Assembly (NCBI GenBank): GCA_964353785.1 | Contig: CAYGWK010000002.1 | Location: 40,293 to 104,292, forward strand | Reading direction: 5' to 3' | DNA: 64,000 bases | Source of the DNA: an uncultured Gammaproteobacteria bacterium | Lineage (GTDB): Bacteria; Patescibacteriota; Microgenomatia; CAYGWK01 | Shown: piece by piece, positions 1,922 to 64,000 of the stretch | Layout: each line of letters starts with the position of its first letter | Position numbering within the stretch: position 1 is the stretch's first letter | Position numbers and translations under genes: made by a program | Notes under the pieces: generated by a model | The model's database searches: none | What the model saw: only the letters and a program-made list of their open reading frames with translations | What the model was told of the DNA's origin: nothing

Positions 1922-1996
1922 GGTGACCCTGCCCGGATTCGAACCGGGGTTTGTAGGATGAGAACCTACTATCCTAAACCGCTAGATGACAGGGCC
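1922..1996 (-). tRNA. tRNA-Glu (anticodon CUC)
   Basis: Reverse complement folds as cloverleaf: acceptor GGCCCTG/CAGGGTC, D-stem ATCT/GGAT, anticodon stem GTAGG/CCTAC with loop TTCTCAT, T-arm CCCGG-TTCGAAT-CCGGG, discriminator A. Confidence 0.8.
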
Positions 1997-2042: not shown

Positions 2043-4448
2043 TTAGGAAGGAAGATAGACTGGAGCAAAACCTTTAAGGCTTTCTCTTTTAGGAAAGATT
2101 TTCTTTTCTTTCTTAAGATAAAGAGCAACCCTCAAGGCTTCCTCAAGGCTTGAGACAAAGACAAATTTAATATCTTTTTTGACTCTGGAAGGAACGTCTT
2201 CCAAATCTTTTTTATTTTCCTTTGGTAAAACTATCACTTTAAGTCCGGCCCGATGAGCGGCAATTACTTTTTCTTTAACTCCGCCAATCTCCAAAACCCG
2301 ACCCCGAAGAGTTATTTCTCCAGTCATCCCTACTTCCCGATGGGTGGGAATTTTTGTTAAGGCGGAAACCAAGGCGGCGGCCATGGCCACTCCGGCCGAG
2401 GGTCCATCTTTTGGAACCGCTCCCTCAGGAACATGAATATGAACATCCAAATTTTTGGCAAAATTTTCTTTAAGACCCAGAGTTTTCCAGTGACTGCGAG
2501 CAAAAGAAAAAGCAGCTTGGGCTGATTCTTTCATTATATCTCCCAAGTGACCAGTCAGAATGAGTTGTCCTTTACCGGGCATTAAAGCCACTTCAATGAA
2601 AAGAACGTCTCCGCCTGCTTCGGTCCAGGCCAGACCAGTCGCCATTCCCACTTCATTTTTCTTTTCCGCCAAAGCTGAAGTGTATTTTTGTGGTCCTAAA
2701 AACTTCCGAGCCTCCAAAATTCCAACTTCTCCTTTAACTTTTTTCCCTTGGGCTTTTTTCTTAGCTACTTTTCGTAAAATCGTTGCCAACATTCTCTCAA
2801 GTTCCCGAACTCCAGCCTCTCTGGTATAGCGACGAATCACCTCGTAAAGTGCCTCATCTTGAATTTTTATTTTTTCAAGCCCGTGAGCCCTAACTTGTTT
2901 TGGCCAAAGAAATTGCCTGCCGATATGAAATTTTTCTTCCTCGGTGTATCCTGGGAAACTGATGACTTCAAACCTGTCCCGAAGCGCTGGCGGAACAGTA
3001 TCTAAAATATTCCCAGTGCAGATAAACATCACCTCTGATAAATCAAAAGGAACCTCAAGATAATGGTCCGAGAATTCTTTATTTTGTTCCGGATCTAAAG
3101 CCTCAAGAAGTGCCGCCGAAGGGTCTCCTCGAAAATCAATGCCAACTTTATCAATTTCATCAAGCATAAAAACTGGGTTTCTGGTTCCGGCGTTTCTCAC
3201 TCCTTGAATTATTCTTCCAGGCAAAGCACCAACATAAGTTCGTCTATGTCCCCGAATTTCTGCCTCATCCCGAATTCCCCCCAAAGAAATCCGAATAAAT
3301 TTTCGTCCTAACGCCCTGGCGATTGATTTTCCAATCGAAGTCTTTCCCACCCCGGGAGGTCCAATAAAACAAAGAATTGAGGGAGTCCCGACCTCTTCTT
3401 TTTTCTGTTTCTTGCTCTTTAATTTCATTACCGCCAAATACTCAACCACCCGCTCTTTCACCTTCTTTAAACCATAGTGGTCTTCCTCCAAAATTTTGGC
3501 GGCTCGGCTAATTCCGGTATTGTTGGGGGTGGCTTTGTTCCAAGGCATCAAGATAACCCAATCAAGCCAATTTTCAATGTAAGGTCGTTCTGGAGACATT
3601 GGCGGCATTTGGGCAAAACGAGAAAGTTCTTTCTCAACTTTTTTTCTTACGTCCGAAGACATTTTAGCCTGGTGGATTTTTTGCCTTAATTCTTTGACCT
3701 GCTCGTCTTCTTCACCAGTTAACTCTCCAAGTTCTTTTTCAATTGTTCTTTTTCTTTCGCGTAAAACCGCCTCTTTCATTTCTTTTTCAAACCGTTCCTG
3801 GGTTTTAGAGGTAATTGACCGTTCAAGTTCTAAAACCCTCAATTCTCGAGTCAAATATTCACCCACCTTTTTAAGTCTGTCTCCAACGACAGCCATTTCC
3901 AAAAGCGCCTGTTTTTCCTTGGCTTTTAAGTCTAGAGTTGAGGTAATTTGGTCAGTCAGCTCGGCCGAAGAAACCCCGGAGGAAAGTCTCATCAAAACCA
4001 TGATGTCAATTGGTTTTCCTAAATTGAAAGCCCGACGATATTCAGAAATCAAATGATTTGAAACTGCTTTGACTTCTTCTGTTTCTTTAATAATTTCTGG
4101 GATTTCTGAAACCTTGACTAAAAGAAAAGGGACATTTTGAACAATTTCTTCAAGCCTAATTCTAGCCAGTCCTCTGGCAATAGCAATAGTTGTTCCATCT
4201 GTCTCCAGGATATTTTCCAAGGAAACTAAGGTTCCAACCGGGTAGAGATCTTCTTTTTCTGGTTCAGCCACTCGGGGGTCTTTTTGGGTAAAAACGGCTA
4301 AAAATCGCTCAGGAGAGCCAGTAAAAGCGGCCTTAACGGCGCTGTTTGAGCGAGGACGACCGAAAGTTAAAGGAAATTCAGTGTAAGGAAAAACGACGCT
4401 GTCTCGTAAAGCCACGGCGGGGATAATTTTTGCTGATTTGTTTACCAT
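2043..4448 (-). CDS. lon: ATP-dependent Lon protease
   Basis: 801 aa; LON N-domain, AAA+ Walker A GPPGVGKTS, catalytic Ser motif PKDGPSAG, Lys motif in C-terminal protease domain. Confidence 0.95.
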   Translation of the reverse strand: MVNKSAKIIPAVALRDSVVFPYTEFPLTFGRPRSNSAVKAAFTGSPERFLAVFTQKDPRVAEPEKEDLYPVGTLVSLENILETDGTTIAIARGLARIRLEEIVQNVPFLLVKVSEIPEIIKETEEVKAVSNHLISEYRRAFNLGKPIDIMVLMRLSSGVSSAELTDQITSTLDLKAKEKQALLEMAVVGDRLKKVGEYLTRELRVLELERSITSKTQERFEKEMKEAVLRERKRTIEKELGELTGEEDEQVKELRQKIHQAKMSSDVRKKVEKELSRFAQMPPMSPERPYIENWLDWVILMPWNKATPNNTGISRAAKILEEDHYGLKKVKERVVEYLAVMKLKSKKQKKEEVGTPSILCFIGPPGVGKTSIGKSIARALGRKFIRISLGGIRDEAEIRGHRRTYVGALPGRIIQGVRNAGTRNPVFMLDEIDKVGIDFRGDPSAALLEALDPEQNKEFSDHYLEVPFDLSEVMFICTGNILDTVPPALRDRFEVISFPGYTEEEKFHIGRQFLWPKQVRAHGLEKIKIQDEALYEVIRRYTREAGVRELERMLATILRKVAKKKAQGKKVKGEVGILEARKFLGPQKYTSALAEKKNEVGMATGLAWTEAGGDVLFIEVALMPGKGQLILTGHLGDIMKESAQAAFSFARSHWKTLGLKENFAKNLDVHIHVPEGAVPKDGPSAGVAMAAALVSALTKIPTHREVGMTGEITLRGRVLEIGGVKEKVIAAHRAGLKVIVLPKENKKDLEDVPSRVKKDIKFVFVSSLEEALRVALYLKKEKKIFPKRESLKGFAPVYLPS

Positions 4449-6172: not shown

Positions 6173-6266
6173 CTTAACACCATATTAAAGCATTGTTTAG
6201 GAAAATTGAAAAGTGGAAAAAATTGTCTTCAGGCTCAAAATTTGCTAAAATTAATCTGCATTTTAT

Positions 6267-6337
6267 TGGAGAGTCGTCTAACGGTAGGACAGTAGCCTCT
6301 GGAGCTACGAATCTAGGTCCGAATCCTAGCTCTCCAG
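6267..6337 (+). tRNA. tRNA-Gln (anticodon CUG)
   Basis: Acceptor TGGAGAG/CTCTCCA (U1-A72 as in bacterial tRNA-Gln), U8, D-stem GTCT/GGAC, anticodon stem GTAGC/GCTAC loop CTCTGGA, T-arm CTAGG-TCCGAAT-CCTAG, discriminator G. Confidence 0.75.
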
Positions 6338-6342
6338 CAAAA

Positions 6343-6410
6343 TCTAGGTTCGCCTGCCCCGCTGAAGCCGAATGCTAAACTTTTGTGGGGAATCCTAGTC
6401 CCGCAGCAAA
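6343..6410 (+). repeat. two partial direct copies of tRNA-Gln 3' half (6343-6362 aatctaggtTCGcctgcc; 6389-6410 gaatcctagtcccgcagcaaa) immediately downstream of the tRNA
   Basis: Direct comparison with tRNA T-arm/acceptor 3' strand gaatcctagctctccagcaaaat. Confidence 0.55.
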
Positions 6411-6976
6411 TGAAAGATAAGATTCTCAGAAAAATTTCTAAAGTTGATTATCTTCGAGAGATATTATTACGTCACAGAACTGAGTATAAAAAAATACTAG
6501 AGATAATAACCAAGCGCAACCTCACGCATAAAAGGGGTATTGGATTCTGGTCACTTACCAGAATGATTTTCCCAGTTATTGAAACCGTTGCCGATGTTGT
6601 CGAAAAGGAAAAAGAAAAATTTCTTAGTGAGGAACTGGGAGTCCCTTTTGGATTTGTTGTTTGGGAAATGTATCGCAATTCACTGATGCATACTGATGAA
6701 TTAAGGTACATAGTCTATAAAAGGAAAACAATTTTTTGGTCAATTCAATTAGGAAATGAAGATATTGGCCACCTAATTACCAAGCAGACTGATTCAATGT
6801 ATGCTGCAATACATTTGAGTATTCCTAAACTATATAGAGATTTAGAAACATTTTTAATATCAGAAATTTCCAAAAACGACAAGTCGATTATAAATGTTCA
6901 AGTTGGTAGTTACTTTTCGAAAAAAAGTAAAGGAATTCTATTAAAAGAACTCAAAGAAATACATTCAAAATATTAG
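6383..6976 (+). CDS. hypothetical protein with HEPN-like R-N-x3-H motif (YRNSLMH); possible start at 6410
   Basis: 197-aa ORF; alpha-helical-looking, motif EMYRNSLMHTDE matches Rx4-6H of HEPN RNases (inference only). Confidence 0.45.
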   Translation: MWGILVPQQMKDKILRKISKVDYLREILLRHRTEYKKILEIITKRNLTHKRGIGFWSLTRMIFPVIETVADVVEKEKEKFLSEELGVPFGFVVWEMYRNSLMHTDELRYIVYKRKTIFWSIQLGNEDIGHLITKQTDSMYAAIHLSIPKLYRDLETFLISEISKNDKSIINVQVGSYFSKKSKGILLKELKEIHSKY

Positions 6977-7070: not shown

Positions 7071-7709
7071 ATGTCAATAAACGACGCGGTAACAATTCCA
7101 GAAGAGATAAAGATTCAAATGCAAATGCAGGCGTACCTCGACAGAGCGATTGATTATTATATTTTTGCACGCAAGGCAGTTATGCTTGGTGTGTTACCCG
7201 TAGGCGGTAGCTTGTTTCATATAGCGGTGGAGATGGCGCTACACTGCGGATTATCAACTAAGTATTCCCAGACTGAACTTGAGAAAAGATTCTTGCATCA
7301 CGAACTTCCTTATATGTGGTCTGAGTTTAAAACAACTTTTATAAGTACTAAACTTTCTAAGTTTGATAAATTCGTAAATCATCACCGGCAGTGGAAAGAA
7401 TTGAGATATCCGAAGAGTAAATCAAAAGGATCGATAATCTTTTTTGGTCGTACTAAACCTGATCCTGAAGTTATGAAGAGAAATATGGCGAATTTTCCTA
7501 AGAGCAACATTCAAATAGAAATAAACCTTGAAGACATGGATGAGTTTATGACCGCTTTAATTCTAGCAATTGGTATAAACCCTGACCATATTAAACTCCA
7601 CCTTCAACACAACGCTGAGTTGCAGAAACTTTATCTTGACGAGAATGTTCATCCATTGTTTAGCGCCGATACAAAGGTTAGCTCTACTACTCTCTTACAA
7701 AGGCAATGA
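7071..7709 (+). CDS. hypothetical protein, classical HEPN-domain-like N-terminal half
   Basis: SLFHIAVEMALHCGL…HHELPYM…QWKELRYP resembles PF05168-type HEPN helix pattern (FHaqQavEkaLK…RYP); inference. Confidence 0.45.
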   Translation: MSINDAVTIPEEIKIQMQMQAYLDRAIDYYIFARKAVMLGVLPVGGSLFHIAVEMALHCGLSTKYSQTELEKRFLHHELPYMWSEFKTTFISTKLSKFDKFVNHHRQWKELRYPKSKSKGSIIFFGRTKPDPEVMKRNMANFPKSNIQIEINLEDMDEFMTALILAIGINPDHIKLHLQHNAELQKLYLDENVHPLFSADTKVSSTTLLQRQ

Positions 7710-16175: not shown

Positions 16176-17802
16176 CGCTTGCTCTTAAATCTTTAATTTT
16201 AAGTTGTAATCTTTTTTCTTGGTTCCATTGGTCACAAATTAGGTTGTAGACCAAATCAACCTCTTCATTCGGTGAAAGCTCTTGAAAAATGTTTCCCATT
16301 CTAAAACCAATGGCGTCAAAGGTGACAGGTGACAAGGGACAAGCAACACGTAATTTGAGATGCTGATTTCCATTGCCAACAGTTTTGGCATCTGAAACAA
16401 TCAAATTTCGGCTTAAGAAAACTGGTTCGGGGTTACCAAAACCAAATGGTTCAAGTTTTTTTAAATTTTCCCAAAGGTCAAAATTTATACTCTTAAGGTC
16501 TAATTCTAAATCAATTTTTACAACTGGAGTTAGTTTTTCTTCATCAAGCTCTCTTTCAGCAATTTTCTCAAGTCTTTCTCTTAACTCTTCAAGTTTTATT
16601 GTTTCAACTGAAAACCCAGCTGCCATCGGGTGTCCTCCATGAGGACCTAAGATATCGCTACAGGCCCTTATCGCTTCAACCACATTAAAACCATTAATTG
16701 ACCGGGCTGAAGCCCGAGAATATTTTTCACCTTTAGCAACAATAATCGCCGGCCGATAAAACTCTTCCGCCAATTTCCCTGCTACCAACCCAACAATTCC
16801 TTCCTCGTAAGACTGGTGAGAAACAAAAATTAATTTTCCCTTTCCCCCTTGAGTAAGCCACAAATCCCGAGCATGAAGAGTCGTCTCTTCTGTTAAAAGT
16901 TGGCGCTGTCGATTGTGTTGGTCTATTTTTTTAGCCAATAAAACTGCTCTTTCTTGATTAGGAGTTAAAACTAGTCGCAGCGACTCTATCGGGTCCTCCA
17001 TTCGGCCGGCGGCATTTAAACGGGGTCCAATGATAAAACCGATTTCATAGGTGCCAATATTCTCTGGTAATATTCCAACCACTCTGTAAAGTTCCCGAAG
17101 CCCGGCTCTTTTTGTCTTCTGGACCTCCGGCAGCCCATGATAGACAATAGAGCGGTTTACCCCGATTAGGGGCATCACATCCGAAACTGTACCAATGGTC
17201 ACTAAGTCAAGACCCGGTTCTCTCAAATTTTTTGCCAAAAACCAGGAGACTCCCGAGCCAGAGAGTTTGGTCGTATGAACAGTCGAGAAGGCTTTTGGTT
17301 TTTCTTTTCCAGGTATGTGATGGTCGGTGACAATAACATCAACACCGAGTTTTTTGGCATGTTCAACTTGTTTTACGGCAACAATCCCCTGGTCAACGGT
17401 AATTATCAAACTTACTCCACTTTTCCCAAACTCCTCAATTCTTTCGACTTTTAGTCCATAGCCTTCTTCTCGGGTCGGGATAAAGGGCATAACTTTGGCT
17501 CCAAGTTTATTTAATGTTTCCCATAAAATAGCGGTGGCACAAACTCCGTCGGTATCATAATCACCATAGACGATTATTTTTTCTTTTTTTTTAATTGCCT
17601 TTTTAATCCGCCCGACAGCTTTGGAAAGTTGTTTTGGATTGATGCCTAAATCTTTAGCAGTTATTTTATAAGGATCAGGAGGGTTTAAAAATTCTTTTAT
17701 TTCTTTTTTTGTTTTTATCCCCCGATTTTTAAGAAGGATCTCGATAATCCTGTTTTCTTGTTTCTTGTCTCTTGTTGCTGATAATACCATCCATTTTTTC
17801 AT
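16159..17802 (-). CDS. recJ: single-stranded-DNA-specific exonuclease RecJ
   Basis: DHH motifs VYGDYDTDGV, IVTDHHIPG; DHHA1 GGHPMAAG. Confidence 0.85.
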   Translation of the reverse strand: MKKWMVLSATRDKKQENRIIEILLKNRGIKTKKEIKEFLNPPDPYKITAKDLGINPKQLSKAVGRIKKAIKKKEKIIVYGDYDTDGVCATAILWETLNKLGAKVMPFIPTREEGYGLKVERIEEFGKSGVSLIITVDQGIVAVKQVEHAKKLGVDVIVTDHHIPGKEKPKAFSTVHTTKLSGSGVSWFLAKNLREPGLDLVTIGTVSDVMPLIGVNRSIVYHGLPEVQKTKRAGLRELYRVVGILPENIGTYEIGFIIGPRLNAAGRMEDPIESLRLVLTPNQERAVLLAKKIDQHNRQRQLLTEETTLHARDLWLTQGGKGKLIFVSHQSYEEGIVGLVAGKLAEEFYRPAIIVAKGEKYSRASARSINGFNVVEAIRACSDILGPHGGHPMAAGFSVETIKLEELRERLEKIAERELDEEKLTPVVKIDLELDLKSINFDLWENLKKLEPFGFGNPEPVFLSRNLIVSDAKTVGNGNQHLKLRVACPLSPVTFDAIGFRMGNIFQELSPNEEVDLVYNLICDQWNQEKRLQLKIKDLRASDGERI

Positions 17803-17824
17803 AGCGTGATATAATCATATCAGG

Positions 17825-19183
17825 ATGAATCTTGAACTTCCAGAGTTTGTTCGCCAAATTTTTGAAAAATTCCAAAAAAAAGGTTTTGAGATCTATTTGA
17901 TTGGAGCCGGTAGTCGCAATCTCCTGACTGGTAAAGAAATTGTTAATCCTGATTTTACCACCAACGCCACGCCAAACGAAATTCAAAAGCTCTTTCCCAA
18001 GAGTTTTTATGACAACAAATTTGGAACGGTTGGGATGAAGATTGACGATCAACTTTATGAGATTACCACCTATCGCTTAGAATGGGGTTATTCAGATCGG
18101 AGGCATCCGGATAAAATTCTGTTTGGAAAAAAACTGGAAGAAGATTTAGCCAGAAGAGAATTTACCATTAGTGCGATTGCTATTGGATCAACAAGGACTA
18201 AGAAAGGTTTTGAAATTATCGATCTTTTTGGCGGACAAGAAGACTTAAAAAATAAAGTCGTCAGGGCGGTTGGCGATCCAAATAAAAGATTTTCCGAGGA
18301 TGCTCTGCGAATGATGCGAGCAATTCGTCTTGCAACAGAGCTTGGTTTTACCATTGAACCAAAAACCTTCCAGGCAATTCAGAATAACGCCACTTTAACT
18401 GGCCAAATCGCCAAAGAACGGGTAAGAGATGAACTCTTTAAAATTTTAAAAAGTGATTTTCCCGCTGATGGCGTAATGCTTTTGCGAAATAGCGGGCTTC
18501 TAGAGCAGATTATTCCCGAATTAGTTAAGGCTTTTGATATTCCCCAACAATCTCCAAAAAGGCATCATATTTATGACGTCGGCACCCACAGTATTTTATC
18601 TTTGAAACATTGCCCTTCGCCTGACCCATTAGTCCGCTTGGCGGCTCTTATCCATGATTTAGGAAAAGTGGCCACCTTCAAAAAACAAAAAGATGGAACG
18701 ATTACTTTTTACAATCATGAATTGATTAGCACCTCAATCGCTGAAAATTTAGCCGGTAAATTAAGGCTTTCTAAAAAAGAGAAACAAAAACTGGTTACCT
18801 TAGTTCGTTGGCATCAATTTACCTGCGATGAACGTCAAACCGATTCGGCAATCCGTAGATTTATCAGAAATGTTGGTAAAGAAAATTTAAAAGATATGTT
18901 AGACCTCCGGGTTGGCGACCGACTTGGGGGTGGAGCCAGAGAAACATCTTGGAGACTTGAAAAATTCAAAAAAAGACTGGTTGAAGTTCAAAAACAACCA
19001 TTTTCTGTGACCGATTTAAAAGTTGATGGCAATGATGTAATGAAAATCTTAAAAATTGGTTCAGGACCAACGGTTGGAAAAATTTTAGAAACTCTTTTTG
19101 CGGAAGTGGTTGAGGACAAAACAAAAAACAAAAGAGAATTTCTTCTCAAACGAATAGGAGAACTTGGCAAATCTCTAGGTTAA
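17825..19183 (+). CDS. cca: CCA-adding tRNA nucleotidyltransferase with HD domain
   Basis: Pol-beta NTase head IGAGSRNLL…, RRHPDKI, DALRMMRAIRLA, HD motif LIHDLGK. Confidence 0.8.
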   Translation: MNLELPEFVRQIFEKFQKKGFEIYLIGAGSRNLLTGKEIVNPDFTTNATPNEIQKLFPKSFYDNKFGTVGMKIDDQLYEITTYRLEWGYSDRRHPDKILFGKKLEEDLARREFTISAIAIGSTRTKKGFEIIDLFGGQEDLKNKVVRAVGDPNKRFSEDALRMMRAIRLATELGFTIEPKTFQAIQNNATLTGQIAKERVRDELFKILKSDFPADGVMLLRNSGLLEQIIPELVKAFDIPQQSPKRHHIYDVGTHSILSLKHCPSPDPLVRLAALIHDLGKVATFKKQKDGTITFYNHELISTSIAENLAGKLRLSKKEKQKLVTLVRWHQFTCDERQTDSAIRRFIRNVGKENLKDMLDLRVGDRLGGGARETSWRLEKFKKRLVEVQKQPFSVTDLKVDGNDVMKILKIGSGPTVGKILETLFAEVVEDKTKNKREFLLKRIGELGKSLG

Positions 19184-21234: not shown

Positions 21235-22122
21235 TTACTTCTTCCTTCTCTCCTCAATCTGGCTCCAGAGAACTAACAAAGGTGCGGCGGTAAAGGTAGA
21301 AGAATAAGTTCCGGAAATGGTGCCAATTAAAAGGGCGGCCACAAACCATTTGATTGTCGTTCCTCCCAAAAGCAAAAGGGCAATTAACATAAAAATAATG
21401 GTTAAAGAATTATTCAAAGACCGCGAGAGGGTCTCTGTCACCGCTTTATTGACTAAATCCGAGAAAAGTGTTTGAGGAAATCTTTTTTGCGACTCCCGAA
21501 TTCGGTCATAAACAACGACCGTATCGTGAACCGAGAAAGAAAGAATCGTCAGCATGGCGGTCACAAATAAAGTATCAATCTCAACGCCCAAAAAATGTCC
21601 TAAAAGAGAAAAACTTCCCAATAAAACAAGAGAGTCATGGAACATAGCCAAAATGGCACAAATTCCAAATTTGGCATTTTTAAAAGCCCAGGCAACATAA
21701 CCTAAAATAAATCCGGCCGCCAAGACAATGGCCACTGCCGTTTTTATTAAAAGTTCTCGACCCAAAATCGGACCAACAGTTTCAAATCGAAGTTCTTCTG
21801 GCATCTCGGCAAATTTTTCTGCTAAAGCGGCTTTAATGGTTGAAGCATCATCTTTGGTAATAGGGGCTAAGCGAAAAAGAAAAGTATTTTCACCGGAAGA
21901 TTGAACAGAGCTAACCTGAAAATTAGATTGTTCAACAGTCTCTTTCAATGATTGATGATTAATGGTTGATGATTGATGGCTGAATTTCAGTTCGAGCAGA
22001 GACCCGCCGGTAAAATCAATTGAAGGTCTAAGTCCGAAGAAAACTAAAGAAATTATTCCTGGCACCAAAACTAGGGCGGAGAGCAAAAAATATAACCATT
22101 TAAATTTCATAAAGTTAATCAT
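21235..22122 (-). CDS. secF: protein translocase subunit SecF
   Basis: SecF N-terminal motif IDFTGGSLLEL and 6-TM SecDF fold. Confidence 0.85.
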   Translation of the reverse strand: MINFMKFKWLYFLLSALVLVPGIISLVFFGLRPSIDFTGGSLLELKFSHQSSTINHQSLKETVEQSNFQVSSVQSSGENTFLFRLAPITKDDASTIKAALAEKFAEMPEELRFETVGPILGRELLIKTAVAIVLAAGFILGYVAWAFKNAKFGICAILAMFHDSLVLLGSFSLLGHFLGVEIDTLFVTAMLTILSFSVHDTVVVYDRIRESQKRFPQTLFSDLVNKAVTETLSRSLNNSLTIIFMLIALLLLGGTTIKWFVAALLIGTISGTYSSTFTAAPLLVLWSQIEERRKK

Positions 22123-23381: not shown

Positions 23382-23575
23382 TTTTTCTGGCGGTGGAGAA
23401 AGTTTTCTGAAAGAGGAAGCTGTTTGGCGCCTTTAAAAATATAAATTATTTTTCCTTTATCTTTCTCAAAGACAGTTTTGACTGGATCGCCAATTCTTAT
23501 CCCTAAATCCTTAACAAATTCTGAAGGAATCGTTAAGGCAGCCGAATTTCCAGTTTTAATTACTTTTTGCGCCAT
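23378..23575 (-). CDS. AbrB/MazE/SpoVT-type swapped-hairpin DNA-binding protein (antitoxin-like)
   Basis: VIKTGNSAALTIPSEFVKDLGIRIGDPV matches SpoVT_AbrB fold signature; 4-nt overlap with secD start. Confidence 0.5.
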   Translation of the reverse strand: MAQKVIKTGNSAALTIPSEFVKDLGIRIGDPVKTVFEKDKGKIIYIFKGAKQLPLSENFLHRQKK

Positions 23576-33752: not shown

Positions 33753-33761
33753 TTTGTGCTT

Positions 33762-34068
33762 TTGGGAAACCCGTAAGCCAGATTTTGTTTTAGGTAATCA
33801 TCAATCTAGCGCTCTCAAACCTCGACCCTTGGGAAAGCATCCTTTTACCCCGTCAAACGGGGCAAGCGGGTCTTTCGGAGATTGCAGCGGGGAGGGTTGC
33901 CTCGTTTCACTCCCGCCAGAGGCGGGACTCGTCTCTGTGGCCCTATCTTGGTCCCGCCTTTAGGGCGAGACATCCTGGTATTAGTCAGGACACCCTGCTT
34001 TCTGCTGTCTGGACTTTCCTCACTAAAAAATTGAATAATTTTTCAGTGCGATTACCCAGTCTCCCAAA
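33762..34068 (-). ncRNA. rnpB: RNase P RNA (bacterial type A-like, compact ~307 nt)
   Basis: Minus strand contains P4 signature GAGGAAAGUCCAGAC near 5' end, ACAGAGACGAG, GGUAAAAGG, and 3' CUGGCUUACGGG; P1 pairing UUGGGAGAC/GUUUCCCAA; P3 hairpin ACUGAAAAA…UUUUUUAGU. Confidence 0.75.
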
Positions 34069-34100: not shown

Positions 34101-35087
34101 TTACAAGTTTTGGAGGCGTTTTGAAGTAAAAATTTCTGAGGCGGCGACCTGAATAACCAAAACAATAGGAACCGCCAAAATTGCTCCTGTTACACCAGCT
34201 AGTTTAAATCCGATCGCCAAAGATAAAATCGTTACCAACGGATTAAGACCAACAACTTTCTGCATCACTCGGGGAACAATGAGGCTGTTTTCAATTTGTT
34301 GAATTAAAAAATATAAGGCGACAATGGCCACGCCCATAAGAGGGGAAATCGCCAGCCCCGTTAAGACTGCAGGAATAGCAGAGACAACTGGTCCAATATT
34401 GGGAATAATCTCTAAAAGTCCAGCCAAAATTGCCAAAGGCAAGGCAAATTCAATACCCAAAAGCCGAAGTCCAACAAAAGACAAAACTCCCACAATTGTC
34501 ATTAAACTAAGTTCTCCCCTCACCCAACCACCAAGTCTTTTTTCAATCTTATTGATAAACAATTCTGCTTCTTTTTCTTTACCCTCGCCAAAAATAACTA
34601 AAAGATACTGGTTGAGGTTTTTCCGCTCAAGCAAAAGATAAAAAGTAATCACTGCCAAAGCCAAAAGAGCAATTAGATTTGAAAAAAAGCTAATAGTCAA
34701 TTTTAAGATATTGGCTGGAAGAGCCGAAAGATTGGTAAATTGAGTGGCAATTATATTTGGGTCAATTCCAAATCCGCCAAATTGTTTTAAGAAAACGGCT
34801 GTTTTACTGATAAATTCGGCAGTTTGATTAACCAAGGGAGTAATTATGGCGGTCAGTAAAGTCCCAACAGAACCAAAGAAAATTAAATAAATCAAAAGAA
34901 TGGCTAACCAGCGGGGAAGGTGCCACTTTCCAAGTTTATCGACCGCCGGATTTAAGGCAGACATAAAAATTAGAGAAACAAAAAGGGCAACAATAATCTG
35001 GCGGATTTCGAACAAAAGCCAAAGACCGATTAAGAAAAAAACGGTAAAAATTATCGTTCGGTGAGAAATTTCAACTTTTCTCGGCAT
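34101..35087 (-). CDS. AI-2E family transporter (PerM/YhhT-like)
   Basis: 8-TM topology and N-terminal pattern typical of AI-2E/UPF0118. Confidence 0.75.
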   Translation of the reverse strand: MPRKVEISHRTIIFTVFFLIGLWLLFEIRQIIVALFVSLIFMSALNPAVDKLGKWHLPRWLAILLIYLIFFGSVGTLLTAIITPLVNQTAEFISKTAVFLKQFGGFGIDPNIIATQFTNLSALPANILKLTISFFSNLIALLALAVITFYLLLERKNLNQYLLVIFGEGKEKEAELFINKIEKRLGGWVRGELSLMTIVGVLSFVGLRLLGIEFALPLAILAGLLEIIPNIGPVVSAIPAVLTGLAISPLMGVAIVALYFLIQQIENSLIVPRVMQKVVGLNPLVTILSLAIGFKLAGVTGAILAVPIVLVIQVAASEIFTSKRLQNL

Positions 35088-36105
35088 CTGAATAGGAATT
35101 ATACCATGCTTTAATTAACTGCTCAACTTTTTTTTGCCAGCCCCGCCGCGTAATATCAAACCGGTGAATTTTTGGGTCTCTACGAAACCAAGTCATTTGC
35201 CTGCGGGCATAAGCATGTTCATCAAACTTCCATTTCTGGACAACTTCAGCCAAAGATTTCTTGTCTTCAAAATACTCTCTCCAAACCCCATATCCCATGG
35301 CCGTCATTGCTGGCAGGTCCCAAGCACACCCTTGTTTTAGGAGTTTTCTCACTTCTTTTTCTGCTCCCATTTTTATCTGCTCGTTTATTCTTTTATCAAT
35401 CCGTTGGTAAAGAGTTTTATATGGCGCCTTTAAACCAATAAATATAGGGTTTAGGGTATAGCGTCTAGGGACTAGGGCTCGTTTTGGAGTTTTACTAGCC
35501 AGTTCTATTGCTCGAATAAGTCGTCTTGGGTTTTTTCGGTCTGAAGCATTCATTGAGGCTGCTTTTTCTGGATCAATTCTGGCCAACATTTCGAAAAGTT
35601 TTTGGACAGACAAATCCTGGAGTTTTTGCCGAAGTTCCCAATCTGGAGGAACGCCTAAAGTCTCAATCCCATCAACTAATCCTTTGATATAAAATCCTGT
35701 TCCGCCCACAATAATCGGCAATTTTTTTCTTTTCCAGATATCAGAAATTACTTTCCAAGCCAAATTTACATAATCTGCCACCGAAAACTCCTGGGCAGGA
35801 GTCACTACATCCAGAAGCCAGGTTCTTATGCCAGCAAACAAATAATAACCAATTTGAAATTTGAAATTTGAAATTTGAAATTGTTTAGGATTTAGGATTT
35901 TGAACTTAGAATTTGCTGGCAGGTCTTTCCCAGTCCCGATATCCATTCCTTTATAAACCTGTCTTGAATCCGCGGAAACTATTTCTCCATTAAATTTCTT
36001 TGCCAAACGAAGTGCTAACGACGTTTTCCCAACGCCTGTTGGTCCGCAGATAACTAAAAGTTTGTTCATGATTTTTTGTTTATTAATTCCTCCAAAATCC
36101 TCCAT
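35071..36105 (-). CDS. miaA: tRNA dimethylallyltransferase MiaA (carries 31-codon in-frame insertion)
   Basis: P-loop GPTGVGKTS, SADSRQVYKGMDIGTGK; insertion between GTGK and LLDV relative to E. coli MiaA. Confidence 0.85.
   Translation of the reverse strand: MEDFGGINKQKIMNKLLVICGPTGVGKTSLALRLAKKFNGEIVSADSRQVYKGMDIGTGKDLPANSKFKILNPKQFQISNFKFQIGYYLFAGIRTWLLDVVTPAQEFSVADYVNLAWKVISDIWKRKKLPIIVGGTGFYIKGLVDGIETLGVPPDWELRQKLQDLSVQKLFEMLARIDPEKAASMNASDRKNPRRLIRAIELASKTPKRALVPRRYTLNPIFIGLKAPYKTLYQRIDKRINEQIKMGAEKEVRKLLKQGCAWDLPAMTAMGYGVWREYFEDKKSLAEVVQKWKFDEHAYARRQMTWFRRDPKIHRFDITRRGWQKKVEQLIKAWYNSYSDAEKS
35829..35921. mobile_element. 93-nt AT-rich palindromic mini-element inserted in frame in miaA; 10-bp terminal inverted repeats TGCCAGCAAA/TTTGCTGGCA; internal (aatttgaa)x4 and (ttaggatt)x2
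   Basis: Seen in sequence; homologous core aaattgtttaggatttag…cttagaattt shared with 63561..63653. Confidence 0.5.
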
Positions 36106-37100
36106 CTTCGTTTTTTCTCCTCTGGAGAAACATCATCTTTTAATTTAAAGGCAACGGTGCCGGGGCGGGGCGAATAGCGGGCAATATAGGCTTTAACAAA
36201 GCCAACTTTTTGACAAAGTTTGACTGTATTTTCAAACTGTTTTTTTGTTTCTCCAGGAAATCCAACAATAATATCGGTTCCAATTTTAATATCGGGAATT
36301 TGTTTTCTAATTTTGGCAGTTAAACTAAGATATTGTTTGGCTGTATAGGGTCGGTTCATCTTTTTTAAGACTTTGTCATCTCCTGACTGAACTGGTAAAT
36401 GAAGATATTTTTCTATTTTAGGCAGTTTAATTGATTGAATTATGTCGTCAGTTAGATCCCAAGGATTGGAAGTTAAAAAAGAAATTTTCTCAAGCCCAGG
36501 AACTTCGTGCAACCTGCCCAAAAGTTTGGCAAACGATGGCTTGTAGGAATTAACATTTTGCCCAATTAAAGTAATTTCTTTGTATCCCTGCTTAACCAAT
36601 TTTTCTACTTCACAGATAATCTCCTCAAAAGGTCTTGATTTTTCCCGACCCCGAGCATAAGGAACAACGCAATAAGAACAAAATTGATTACAACCTTCCA
36701 TTATCGGCACCAAGGCAGTCTTTTTTTCTCCTCTCACCGAAGGTAAATCAAAAGAATAATCTTCCATTCTTAAAAACTCATCAACTCCAGGCAATTTTTT
36801 TCTGAGAGTAGTAATCCCATACCGCAGCATACAACCAGCCAAAACGACCTTTGGTCGTTTAGCGCATAGCGCATAGCGCATAGTAATATTTTTAATTAAG
36901 CCGAACACTCTATTCTCGGCGGATTCGCGAACAGAACAAGTGTTGATTATCACTACATCTGCTTTATCAAGGCTCTGGGCAGGCTGGAAACCTTTTTTCT
37001 GATAAAACCGAGCAATTCTCTCCGAATCCGCCTCATTGGCTTGGCAGCCGAAAGTTTTAATAAACAAAGTTTGTTGCTTCGCAATAAAATATTTCTTCAT
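36066..37100 (-). CDS. miaB: radical-SAM methylthiotransferase MiaB-like (short, no obvious TRAM domain)
   Basis: MTTase N-domain FGCQANEADSE, radical SAM CSYCVVPYARG; adjacent to miaA. Confidence 0.75.
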   Translation of the reverse strand: MKKYFIAKQQTLFIKTFGCQANEADSERIARFYQKKGFQPAQSLDKADVVIINTCSVRESAENRVFGLIKNITMRYALCAKRPKVVLAGCMLRYGITTLRKKLPGVDEFLRMEDYSFDLPSVRGEKKTALVPIMEGCNQFCSYCVVPYARGREKSRPFEEIICEVEKLVKQGYKEITLIGQNVNSYKPSFAKLLGRLHEVPGLEKISFLTSNPWDLTDDIIQSIKLPKIEKYLHLPVQSGDDKVLKKMNRPYTAKQYLSLTAKIRKQIPDIKIGTDIIVGFPGETKKQFENTVKLCQKVGFVKAYIARYSPRPGTVAFKLKDDVSPEEKKRRWRILEELINKKS

Positions 37101-41427: not shown

Positions 41428-42075
41428 CTACTTTTCCAATTTTTCGTCAATGATTTCTTTTACCGTCTCCCAAGAAAAGCCTCTTCTGGCTAAAGCGGAA
41501 GCCAGTTTCTGTTTCTGTTCAAGGTGAGAATAATGTTTTAGTGATTTCAATTTTTTTTCAGCCACCTTTTTGGCTAAGTCGTGCTCACTAAATGGCTTAA
41601 TGGCTAAATTGCTTAATTGCTGGTCAATAATTTCTCGCGTGACCCCTTTTTGCCGCAACTCTAGGGCTAATAATCTGGTTCCAGAAGGTCTAAAGGTAGT
41701 TCTTTGCTCAATCCACCATTTAGCAAATTCTTCATCATTAAGATATCCTAAGTGTTTTAATTTCTGGTATATTAATTTTTGAGTTTCTTCGCCGACTTGT
41801 TTTTTCTTAAACCAGTCTTTGAGTTCTTTTTCTGAACGGGGACGGTAGGAGAAAAATTTTAAAACTCGGTCATAAACTTTGACAAATTCATTTTCCTTAA
41901 CTAATTTTTCTATTTCTTCCTGGGAAATTTCTTGGTTAATCTTCAAACCTGATTTAACCAAAGTATCAGCATCCAGCCCAAAAGAGAATCTTCCATCAAC
42001 ATAAATATTAAATCTCTGTTTTCTTCTTTGGGGTTTAATATCAGTTATCTGTGGCACTTTATTGCAAAGCAACAA
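41428..42075 (-). CDS. recX: regulatory protein RecX
   Basis: RecX helical-repeat pattern; immediately downstream of recA. Confidence 0.7.
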   Translation of the reverse strand: MLLCNKVPQITDIKPQRRKQRFNIYVDGRFSFGLDADTLVKSGLKINQEISQEEIEKLVKENEFVKVYDRVLKFFSYRPRSEKELKDWFKKKQVGEETQKLIYQKLKHLGYLNDEEFAKWWIEQRTTFRPSGTRLLALELRQKGVTREIIDQQLSNLAIKPFSEHDLAKKVAEKKLKSLKHYSHLEQKQKLASALARRGFSWETVKEIIDEKLEK

Positions 42076-43179: not shown

Positions 43180-43256
43180 CGGAGAGTGGCGCAATTGGTT
43201 AGCGCACCAGGCTGGGGGTCTGGGGGTTGGGGGTTCGAGTCCCCCCTCTCCGACCA
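43180..43256 (+). tRNA. tRNA-Pro (anticodon GGG), CCA encoded
   Basis: Acceptor CGGAGAG/CTCTCCG, D-stem GCGC/GCGC, anticodon stem CCAGG/TCTGG loop CTGGGGG, T-arm GGGGG-TTCGAGT-CCCCC, ACCA 3' end. Confidence 0.8.
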
Positions 43257-47200: not shown

Positions 47201-47952
47201 CTGGTTAAAACCAAAGGACCGCCAGCGGTAACCGCTACGGTCTCTTCAAAAAGCCCGGCTATTTTACCATCTTTTGTTTTAATTGTCCAGCCATCAGAGG
47301 TTAAAACCACTTCTGGCAAGCCAAGATTATAGATAATCTCAATTGCCAACGTCATCCCTTTTTTAAGTTTTGGTGTTTTTTCTACTTCTCCTTCAAAAAA
47401 ACAAGGAATTTGGGGTTCCTCATGAAGTTTCCTGCCAACCCCGTGCCCTGTCAAAGCCCGCACCGGAGAAAATCCCGCCTTTTTAATTTCCTCCTCAATC
47501 ACCTTGCTTATCTGCCCCAAATAATTCCCGGGTCTTACCATTTCAATCGCCTTCTCCAGGGCTCTTTTTCCCGCCTCCAAAAATTCTTCGCTTTTCACTA
47601 GCCACTTGCCACTACCCACTACTATCGTTGTCGCTTTATCGGTGTGGAATCTCTGATAAAAAATTCCTGCATCAAGACTCAAAAGATCGCCCTCTTTTAG
47701 TCGGTAACCGCCAGGAATTCCATGAACCACTCCTTGATTGATATTAATACAGGTGCTCCAGTGGTATCCTGGAACCATTTTAAACGATGGTTTCCCTTTT
47801 TCTTTTTTAATGAGCGCTTCGGCTTGCTCATCAAGCCTTTTAGTTTTAAGTCCTGGTTTTGCCTCTTTTAAAACCTGGTCAAAAACTCGGGCCAGCCTTC
47901 TCCCTCCCTCTCTCATAATTTCTATTTCTTCTTCGGTTTTTAGCGGAATCAT
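47197..47952 (-). CDS. map: methionine aminopeptidase type I
   Basis: Pita-bread fold metal ligands (D…D…H…E…E) pattern. Confidence 0.9.
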
Positions 47953-63059: not shown

Positions 63060-63552
63060 TTTCTCCTCCTTCTGCTTTTGGCTCTTCTGTTTTTGGTTCT
63101 TCAGCAGCCTGAACTCCGACAGTTGCCCCAACCGGAGTTACCGCTCCGGAAATTTTAGTTCCGTAGCGAGAACGACCTTTCTTTCGGCCAACTACTCCAG
63201 TGGTATCGTATTTACCTCGAACAACGTGGTATTTAACTCCAGGCAAATCTTTAACCCTTCCTCCTCTGACTAAAACGATTGAATGCTCGGCTAACTCATG
63301 GCCAATTCCTGGGATATAGGCAGTAATTTCTTGTTTGTTGGAAAGTCTAACCCGAGCCACTTTGCGCAGGGCCGAGTTTGGTTTTTTAGGAGTCATGGTT
63401 TTGACCAACAAAACCACACCCTTTTTAAAGGGACTTTTTACCTCCTTCATCCGTCTTTGTCTAGCATTAAAATATTTTCGCAGGGCGACAACCCGAAGTT
63501 TCTTTTTAATTTTTTTCCTGCCTTTTCGAACCAGTTGATGAATAGTTGGCAT
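63034..63552 (-). CDS. rpsL: 30S ribosomal protein S12 with ~40-aa acidic C-terminal extension overlapping rpsG start by 26 nt (start MPTIHQLV)
   Basis: S12 core [11 protein letters not shown]…[10 protein letters not shown]…; extension …[22 protein letters not shown]. Confidence 0.85.
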
Positions 63553-63560
63553 AATTACGA

Positions 63561-63653
63561 AAATTTCCAAATCCTAATTTCTAAGTTCTAAATAAATCCA
63601 AATGACCAAAATTCAAAATTGTTTAGGATTTAGATATTAGTGCTTAGAATTTT
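63561..63653. mobile_element. second copy (~93 nt) of AT-rich palindromic mini-element in rpsL-rpoC spacer
   Basis: Core aaattgtttaggatttagatattagtgcttagaattt vs miaA copy; left arm aaatcctaatttctaagttctaaa is near reverse complement of right arm. Confidence 0.45.
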
Positions 63654-63667
63654 ACCACAATTTAGGT

Positions 63668-64000
63668 TCACTTTTCAATCTTTGCTCTCTCTGGAAGAAC
63701 AGGGATAAGTCTTCCAATAATCACATTTTCTTTAAGTCCCAAAAGTTTATCTTCTCTCCCCTGAACCGCCACATCTGCTAAAACATTAGTTGTCTCCTGA
63801 AAAGAGGCGGCCGAAAGCCAAGACTCGGTATTTATAGCTGTTCTAATTAGCCCCAGAATAACGGTTTGGCCAGTCGCTGGTTGTCCACCACCTTTTTTAA
63901 TTTGAGAATTTTCTTCTTCAAAACGAACTTTATCCACCAGATCCCCAGGCAAAAGAGTCGTCTCTCCCGAAGAAGCAATTCTTACCTTCTCGCTCATTTT
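63668..64000 (-). CDS. rpoC: DNA-directed RNA polymerase beta' subunit, C-terminal end (gene continues beyond window)
   Basis: …LKENVIIGRLIP… conserved beta' C-terminus; no start within window. Confidence 0.8.
   Translation of the reverse strand, partial: KMSEKVRIASSGETTLLPGDLVDKVRFEEENSQIKKGGGQPATGQTVILGLIRTAINTESWLSAASFQETTNVLADVAVQGREDKLLGLKENVIIGRLIPVLPERAKIEK

Follow-up and report, generated by a model that had tools for sequence, protein, structure and literature searches.

The stretch of DNA analysed here, 64,000 nucleotides long and called the window in what follows, carries a miaA gene on its minus strand. The product was assigned as the tRNA dimethylallyltransferase MiaA from the names of its homologues and from Pfam family PF01715. 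It matched the solved MiaA structures 2qgn (E 1e-50) and 3d3q (E 1e-44), and the gene overlaps the 3' terminus of a TRAM-less miaB. Alignment to 2qgn revealed an enlarged loop, located downstream of the GTGK motif and ahead of the WLLDV strand, where 31 residues (49-79) stand in for 7 residues of the B. halodurans enzyme. The reading frame is unbroken across 35833-35925 and homologues align on either side. The initial annotation had placed an AT-rich segment (35829-35921) in frame within miaA, between GTGK and LLDV, and this placement was confirmed by both the open reading frame and the 2qgn alignment. The features of the locus, together with a related site elsewhere in the window, are as follows.

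35071-36069, minus strand: miaA coding sequence, from the open reading frame list; 332 amino acids from MNKLL, stop codon included.
35833-35925, minus strand: codons 49-79 (DLPANSKFKILNPKQFQISNFKFQIGYYLFA), which form the enlarged loop that follows GTGK, from the alignment to 2qgn.
35881-35914, minus strand: outer-arm module of 34 nt, AAATTCT AAGTTCA AAATCCT AAATCCT AAACAA, encoding NSKFKILNPKQ; checked on the sequence.
35851-35882, minus strand: perfect tandem array, (AATTTGA)x4.6 when read on the plus strand; TRF, 100% matches.
35443-35480, minus strand: second heptamer-like array of miaA, with TATAGGG, TTTAGGG and CTAGGGA units, encoding ALVPRRYTLNP; TRF, periods 7 and 14.
35829-35838, no strand: left arm of a 10-bp inverted repeat, TGCCAGCAAA, coding-strand codons FAG; exact complement of 35912-35921.
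35912-35921, no strand: right arm of the same repeat, TTTGCTGGCA, coding-strand codons LPAN; exact complement of 35829-35838.
63565-63653, no strand: full but shortened copy of a palindromic element, found with the family profile on both strands, in a 115-nt spacer.

Read along the coding strand, the insert runs AAATTCT AAGTTCA AAATCCT AAATCCT AAACAAT and continues as (TTCAAAT)n, with NSKFKILNPKQFQISNFKFQI as its product. The (AATTTGA)x4.6 array corresponds to (AATTTCA)n on this strand and encodes FQISNFKFQI, and a second tandem array, (TTTAGGA)x2.4, lies beside it at 35884-35900. Both arrays had been described as made of 8-nt units; TRF analysis gave a period of 7 in each case. The array at 35443-35480 falls in a second hypervariable loop of the protein, around residues 190-205. 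The unit A AAT TTC has the look of a slippery site, but frameshifting by -1 was rejected, no supporting feature having been found.

Comparison with shuffled sequences showed that the period of 7 is not a chance outcome and that the inverted repeat is not exceptional. Two perfect period-7 arrays with 2.7 units or more were present in the window and none in 30 shuffles, and periods 6 and 8-12 had nothing to match them. Imperfect arrays gave the same picture, with 7 at period 7 against 0-2 for each other lag between 4 and 14. A further candidate, TGGGGGT x3 at 43213-43235, was discarded as it corresponds to tRNA-Pro(GGG). Perfect 10-bp inverted repeats no more than 120 nt apart numbered 30 in the window, against a mean of 24 and a maximum of 38 in dinucleotide shuffles. 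The repeat flanking the insert therefore carries no weight as evidence, because its frequency is at chance level. Where its arms lie, the closest relatives read LPKN or LPIS on one side and FDG, FEG or FDQ on the other; judging from these protein sequences, they would be unable to encode the same complementary arms. The arms described in the initial annotation are thus exact complements, as claimed, but they occur at chance level, appear not to be encodable in the closest relatives and are not the termini of an element.

The nearest proteins were MiaA sequences of Shapirobacteria and Microgenomates-group MAGs, which belong to the candidate phyla radiation (CPR). The insert site is hypervariable in an alignment of 42 MiaA sequences. 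Most relatives display DLPxNSK, a variable core and then GYYxFxGIPVW, one group reads GKWIMDNGK..GHWEVEG at the loop, and four (P0060, P0022, P0040 and P0052) lack the insert. Every relative with 60-73% identity has a long loop, bordered by the conserved DLPxNSK and GYYxFxGI, and the insert is therefore not recent. Across 76 metagenome relatives, loop length ranged from 5 to 38 amino acids, 11 being the standard bacterial form; filled and empty sites were both present in this set, in which no filled/empty pair exceeded 90% identity. The alignments show that loop enlargement is common to a large clade of MiaA proteins of Microgenomates-like type.

The long loops are built from heptamers, and the unit changes from one relative to another. 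Lag-7 identity was 0.51-0.62 in nine long loops with at least five different units (AAATTCC, AAATTCT, AAATTTC, AAAATCA and AAAATTC), and such loops were found in both MiaA subtypes, the W-type to which the window's clade belongs and the ordinary GIPHHLLD-type. The loop of P0064 (55% identity, locus L001) is LPANSKFKILNSKQ, encoded by (AAATTCT)x4, and those of L120 (60% identity) and L121 (54%) use (AAATTCC)x4. Units differ even between close relatives, and the arrays in relatives are often imperfect. The second loop is a hotspot too and varies greatly in length, with arrays at the position equivalent to 35443-35480 in five other loci (L124, L137, L187, L129 and L127). Because the long forms use different heptamer arrays in two subtypes, the MiaA loop appears to be a recurrent hotspot for such arrays, probably with rapid turnover, rather than the site of one recent insertion. 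The initial annotation had set a mobile insertion against an ancient insert common to all orthologues, and the comparison lent something to each: the core is hypervariable and related copies exist elsewhere, but orthologues do carry the segment, with conserved flanks.

An AlphaFold model of MiaA (mean pLDDT 85) was examined around the insert. Average confidence was 77 for residues 51-60 and dropped to 57 for residues 61-70, and GYYLF (74-78) was modelled as a strand paired with residues 81-84. The second array region (residues 196-201) had pLDDT values below 50. The C-terminal part of the loop, IGYYLF, is predicted to form a conserved beta strand against the enzyme core, and the model would fit a heptamer-coded insert tolerated as a MiaA surface loop on a fixed structural base.

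The related site lies in the spacer between rpoC and rpsL (63553-63667), bounded by the rpsL start at 63552 and by the rpoC stop codon (63668-63670), which ends the C-terminus of the RNA polymerase beta-prime subunit. In the spacer, 18 + 10 bases are identical to the miaA stretch and aligned in the same register, namely AAATTCTAAG, nine bases and then CTAAATCCTAAACAATTT, and both of its arms are phased heptamer arrays. A search pattern with 23 fixed and 2 degenerate positions was generalised from the miaA copy, the spacer copy and L001, and a collection of species-representative genomes was scanned with it. This returned at least 122 matches in at least 118 loci. On the miaA coding strand, the 34-nt module at 35881-35914 carries the signature common to this dispersed family, AAATTCTAAG..CTAAATCCTAAACAA.

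Among the matches listed, the signature usually forms the outer arm in an imperfect palindrome some 130 nt long. The opposite arm was recognisable in 76 of the 122, and the median length of the palindrome is 132 nt. The architecture consists of four CT-type heptamers, AAACAA, three or four CAAA-type heptamers, a loop and the complement of the foregoing, so that the ends read AAATTCT...AGAATTT; the proposed 10-bp repeats of miaA match no terminus of the family. The right-arm core TTGTTTAG is nearly invariant, although it lies outside the search pattern. Canonical copies carry TAA or TAG stops in all frames. Most copies listed stand between tandem genes (68), others between convergent (13) or divergent (9) genes, and one lies in the middle of an open reading frame. 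As many as 4 copies were found within 8 kb in genomes other than the source of the window.

The sources of the matches listed, given here by depositors' labels in which binning errors are possible, include many classes of Patescibacteria as well as Omnitrophota, Planctomycetota, Nitrospirota, Deltaproteobacteria, Chloroflexota, WOR-3, Elusimicrobia, Bacteroidota, Gammaproteobacteria, ANME-1/Methanophagales, Thermoplasmata and Nanoarchaeota. Archaeal origin is certain for one ANME-1 locus, whose copy adjoins a coenzyme F430 synthase gene scoring above the curated cut-off. The same conserved left flank was found in three more loci, two labelled Methanophagales and one labelled Nitrosotalea; the other flanks of family copies are mutually unrelated. 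Five IMG/VR viral contigs carried the signature, one of them with four copies. Collections of cultured phages and plasmids, searched by blastn with a full element, gave no match, a result to which the low-complexity filter may have contributed.

A family profile built exclusively from copies in other genomes was then applied to the window. It recognised the spacer at 63565-63653 over model positions 7-139, the copy lacking the inner part (36.7 bits, E 1.5e-10), and the miaA stretch at 35915-35837 over model positions 3-76, that is one half of the model. The miaA match scored 45.1 bits, a value that is partly circular over the first 34 positions because the search pattern came from this window. 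The best full-profile score in 1.92 Mb of shuffled window was 10.1 bits. The window contains two copies and one weak match at 23492-23525 (E 0.01), which was rejected as chance after its sequence was read. The same profile also matched the equivalent miaA site in L120 and L121.

We conclude that the spacer copy is a genuine and ordinary intergenic member of the family. It lies upstream of rpsL and would form at most a weak hairpin (-20.3 kcal/mol, z -1.87). The initial annotation was thus correct in pointing to a second copy, but the equal length of 93 nt was a coincidence of where the ends had been drawn, and the profile moved the limits to 35837-35915 in miaA and 63565-63653 in the spacer. 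The miaA copy had also been called palindromic, which is not the case, since it matches one half of the family model only. Its (AATTTCA)n array sits where the family has its inner arm. A profile restricted to the inner arm scored 10.1 bits on miaA (E 0.049, not significant) and shuffles reached 13.4 bits; because this score lies within the shuffle range, it lends no separate support to descent of the miaA copy from a full element. A point free of circularity is that the signature derived from miaA picks out, in unrelated genomes, a palindromic family that is coherent and of which the spacer copy is a complete member. In its layout the miaA stretch corresponds to one half-element, and common descent with the family is likely but short of proof; a heptamer array that grew independently in miaA and converged on the same units could also account for the match.

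How the family spreads was addressed through its flanks, its neighbours and its arms. None of 66 full copies showed a target-site duplication, and the distribution of flank matches was that of shuffled flank pairs. All-against-all clustering of the 974 open reading frames in the 118 loci listed revealed no transposase near the copies, an approach that leaves room for trans-acting enzymes elsewhere in the genomes. The recurring neighbour families were housekeeping only (ABC ATPase, RF1, L11, L1 and NusG), with several ribosomal-protein operons. Copies within a locus were more similar to each other than copies from different loci (0.51 vs 0.40, p 0.002), and L049 contained two identical copies of 188 nt and a pair of highly similar copies of 127 nt. 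Such near-identical copies in single genomes show that the family can proliferate.

Several known classes of element were considered for the family. A structured RNA or selected hairpin was rejected, because the arms were as complementary between copies (0.725) as within a copy (0.72) and RNAalifold detected compensatory change in 0 of 12 consensus pairs. An Rfam search gave nothing at gathering score and returned only microRNA noise (E 0.05-0.65). Integron attC sites were rejected by inspection, the CCTAAAC / GTTTAGG core being a misfit to the RYYYAAC / GTTRRRY boxes; copies also stand singly among housekeeping genes, unlike attC arrays, which follow cassettes and accompany an integrase. A REP/RAYT reading was dropped on inspection, as no RAYT was present among the neighbours. 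Literature searches by sequence string and by keyword, with incomplete coverage, found no description of the family.

An enrichment specific to period 7 was also seen in other CPR DNA. A set of 814 kb, chosen because it encodes MiaA and not for its repeats, contained 38 period-7 arrays, compared with 0-5 for other lags and 19 at lag 14. When this set and the window were combined, 34 of 40 arrays fell in stop-free frames of at least 150 codons, compared with 83% of random windows. Period-7 arrays therefore fall within genes at the frequency that placement by chance would give. Further arrays of the window lie in miaB and in the genes for SecF, methionine aminopeptidase and RecJ. In-frame segments of this kind exist in other housekeeping genes of similar organisms: a LeuRS gene (L092) holds at least four, for example QNSKSETLNSKQIQNPKSKIQN.

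We therefore favour the hypothesis, which we consider somewhat probable, that the miaA stretch is a translated heptanucleotide-repeat insert that entered a surface loop of MiaA at an early date and has been turned over since. A heptamer array, or half of an element, would have entered the permissive loop long ago. The differences between species suggest subsequent turnover of the array, whether through slippage or through copying from arrays elsewhere in the genome. Selection would retain versions that preserve the frame and are free of TAA and TAG stops, and the insert would be a passenger loop that the protein tolerates. Along the coding strand, the stretch comprises the 34-nt outer module AAATTCT..CTAAATCCTAAACAA followed by CAAA-type heptamers, here (AATTTCA)x4.6; the flanking 10-bp inverted repeat would be incidental.

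The initial annotation had put forward a recent transposition comparable to that of RPEs or MITEs, in which a 93-nt mobile element with 10-bp terminal inverted repeats landed in frame. The exact inverted repeat, the existence of a related spacer copy, the predicted RNA folding of the flagged miaA region (z -2.9) and the near-identical copies in single genomes elsewhere are all in keeping with it. It is nonetheless largely refuted, and we regard it as extremely unlikely: inverted repeats of this size arise at chance frequency, the arms fall in loop-flanking residues of dozens of relatives and would be unable to pair there, and no other family copy has these termini. The long loop is moreover already present in all relatives of 60-73% identity, target-site duplications are missing and the miaA copy is half of a palindrome only. 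What stands of the RPE-like reading is translation in frame and a dispersed palindromic family; the termini, the palindromy and the recency do not. At the other extreme, the stretch could be an ancient, lineage-specific structural loop whose K/N/F/Q/I-rich sequence reflects AT bias and whose resemblance to the spacer and to elements elsewhere is coincidental or convergent. We consider this unlikely. AT bias gives no specific period of 7, other lags are not enriched, and a perfect x4.6 array is incompatible with an old, slowly drifting sequence. Close relatives have different units, and all 25 specified positions of the signature, among them the AAACAA junction and the order of heptamer types, match elements in unrelated phyla. 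Such a loop would agree with the conserved protein flanks DLPxNSK and GYYxFxGI, with the structured GYYLF of the AlphaFold model and with the non-significant score of the inner-arm profile. Heptameric simple repeats are also over-represented in bacteria, possibly through polymerase slippage (PMC4692102).

Two functional proposals start from the insert as it stands today. The enlarged, hairpin-like loop might be an adaptive extension of MiaA that contacts tRNA or a partner protein in reduced genomes, as many relatives keep a loop of 30-38 amino acids with conserved aromatics (GYY, W) and part of it is modelled confidently. This appears quite improbable, given that the heptamer-coded core is hypervariable and of low confidence in the model, and that the loop is missing altogether in P0060, P0022, P0040 and P0052. 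Non-triplet repeats within genes are the classical substrate of phase variation, and heptanucleotide examples exist. A change of one 7-nt unit in (AATTTCA)n, in either direction, shifts the frame and cuts MiaA short at residue 112 or 79, so that a switch turning MiaA off could modulate translational fidelity in a subpopulation; arrays are present in many housekeeping genes as well. Against this, 4.6 units are few for frequent slippage, and the arrays of relatives are often imperfect, which suppresses it. Switching also fails to explain the general phenomenon, because loss of LeuRS or SecF would be lethal. A switching role for the miaA array is conceivable but unsupported, and we judge it very unlikely.

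The translated heptamer insert was compared with repeat systems described in other bacteria. Rickettsia palindromic elements (RPEs) are small, non-autonomous and dispersed palindromes found between genes and in frame in unrelated housekeeping genes, and the peptide that an RPE adds to its host protein is tolerated by the fold (PMC10969869). The miaA insert resembles them in being translated as an extra peptide inside an essential-type gene. RPEs are about 150 bp long with a family-specific conserved peptide, and RPE-1 is confined to Rickettsia. Here, by contrast, the units are 7-nt tandem arrays and the in-gene copy is a hypervariable half element rather than a palindrome of 100-150 nt, its sole long-range pairing being the chance-level 10-bp repeat. 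The signature, among the matches listed, also extends to many phyla and to archaea.

Cyanobacterial STRRs, with published units CCCCAGT, TTGGTCA and CAACAGT, also occur inside a functional gene, that of RNase P RNA. Head-to-tail 7-nt units in miaA and the over-representation of period 7 in the window and in CPR loci recall these repeats. STRR-type repeats are G-rich and reported mainly between genes, whereas the units found here are AT-rich (AAATYCT, AATTTCA), belong to a Microgenomates-like CPR host and occur within protein-coding genes as frequently as the coding density would predict. The conserved higher-order palindrome with its invariant CTAAATYCTAAACAA / TTGTTTAG core is a further difference. 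Among heptameric simple repeats, which are over-represented relative to other unit sizes, Xanthomonas GGGAATC and Nostoc GGGGAYT are examples; they sometimes form inverted arrays able to adopt stem-loops, including in Xanthomonas, and even close relatives differ in the length and the sequence of these repeats (PMC4692102). MITEs and REP/REPIN elements (Correia, ERIC, BOX, REPIN-RAYT) share with the family a length of about 100-150 nt, inverted arms, many copies per genome, a mostly intergenic position near gene ends and near-identical copies within one genome. Unlike them, the family has no target-site duplication and no neighbouring transposase or RAYT; its arms are no better matched within a copy, its pairs show no compensatory change and its interior is heptamer-phased.

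The broader pattern, a heptamer palindrome found across domains together with in-frame arrays in CPR housekeeping genes, is of more interest than an RPE-like reading of one locus. In-frame insertion of repeats into essential genes is best documented in Rickettsia, and repeats whose unit is not a multiple of three would ordinarily be expected to disappear from coding sequence. The same outcome is now seen in candidate-phyla bacteria, where the material it draws on is 7-nt tandem arrays. Because arrays occur in CPR genes at the rate of random placement, they are a plausible and testable source of lineage-specific protein inserts. A wider proposal, which we hold only tentatively and which is more doubtful than the account given for miaA, is that one undescribed family with the core CTAAATYCTAAACAA ... 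TTGTTTAGRATTTAG extends across bacteria, archaea and viral contigs, supplies loops to essential CPR proteins (MiaA, LeuRS, SecF, methionine aminopeptidase and RecJ) and has been spread or generated without transposase or target duplication. Distant bacterial phyla and methane-oxidising archaea have a nearly identical core in this intergenic palindrome, which measures about 130 nt. If the family is truly undescribed, the question becomes by what process one small DNA is copied or built in different domains and yet lacks the usual marks of transposition.

Several of the copies listed lie at a contig end or within about 50 nt of it, for example those of L008, L028, L075, L078 and L079. This position fits a family that fragments metagenome assemblies, and its copies can give rise to spurious open reading frames of low complexity.

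The immediate flanks of the element, the dispersed heptamer-phased palindrome, often contained heptamer arrays built from unrelated units. At five loci from other genomes or contigs (L045, L032, L099, L110 and L119), the adjoining units were GTCNATA, AACAGAG, TAAGTCA, AGGAATAC-like and TAGATAT; this favours a general process behind heptamer arrays over a single sequence family. At four other loci (L027, L051, L023 and L088), elements were nested directly in or beside short G+C-rich hairpins, e.g. CCTTGTGC..GCACAAGG; an outer GC stem thus clamps the AT-rich palindrome, much like the 10-bp repeat enclosing the miaA stretch of the window.

Arrays were also found in frame within a leucyl-tRNA synthetase gene (locus L092, JAGGTU010000005.1), which carries at least four heptamer-array segments; three of these are matched by the family profile, built only from element copies outside the window's genome. 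The segments lie at:
831-911
~1290-1340
1535-1618
2231-2290

Within the window, a perfect array was present in miaB:
36066-37100, minus strand: miaB, 344 aa
36860-36883: perfect (TAGCGCA)x3.4 heptamer array, inside miaB and in frame

The array encodes the peptide MRYALCAK, within a linker whose alignment to a solved MiaB is loose. The 344-residue window protein could be aligned to the solved enzyme (457 aa) up to residue 380 only, so that it appears, as judged from this alignment, to lack the C-terminal TRAM domain. Imperfect short arrays were located in four further genes:
16315-16348: unit GGTGACA, inside RecJ
17748-17775: unit TTTCTTG, inside RecJ and shared with a small ORF (17729-18052)
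21948-21978: unit ATGATTG, inside SecF
41588-41621: period 8/16, inside RecX
47595-47623: unit CACTAGC, inside methionine aminopeptidase

The following RNA genes were identified in the window:
1924-1996, minus strand: tRNA gene
6267-6337, plus strand: tRNA gene
33758-34067, minus strand: bacterial RNase P RNA class A (121 bits)
43180-43253, plus strand: tRNA-Pro(GGG) gene

A TGGGGGT repeat look-alike was discarded, as it corresponds to the T arm of this tRNA-Pro(GGG), which mimics a repeat.

Two MiaA relatives, P0003 and P0017, shared a 14-residue insert (SRPKVEDPRRKASG / SRLKVEDPRRRASG) directly N-terminal of LPIIVGGTG (columns ~161-174 of the MiaA alignment A1), yet they are not each other's closest relatives. 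The insert was absent from every other MiaA in this alignment and looks, at the sequence level, like a second small insert family, distinct from the miaA heptamer loop.

Repeated and split copies of the element were also detected. Locus L049 (CAZUWK010000014.1) contained two identical 188-nt copies in inverted orientation (209-396 and 7143-7330), ~6.7 kb apart and enclosing two highly similar 127-nt copies (4312-4438 and 6225-6352); the four copies may together form a composite structure or stem from a recent duplication. At L017, the left and right halves (6181-6265 and 6531-6649) were separated by ~270 nt, as if something had been inserted in the loop of a full copy. Half-copies located between genes were found in the IMG/VR viral contigs (L200-L205), with up to four within 7.4 kb.
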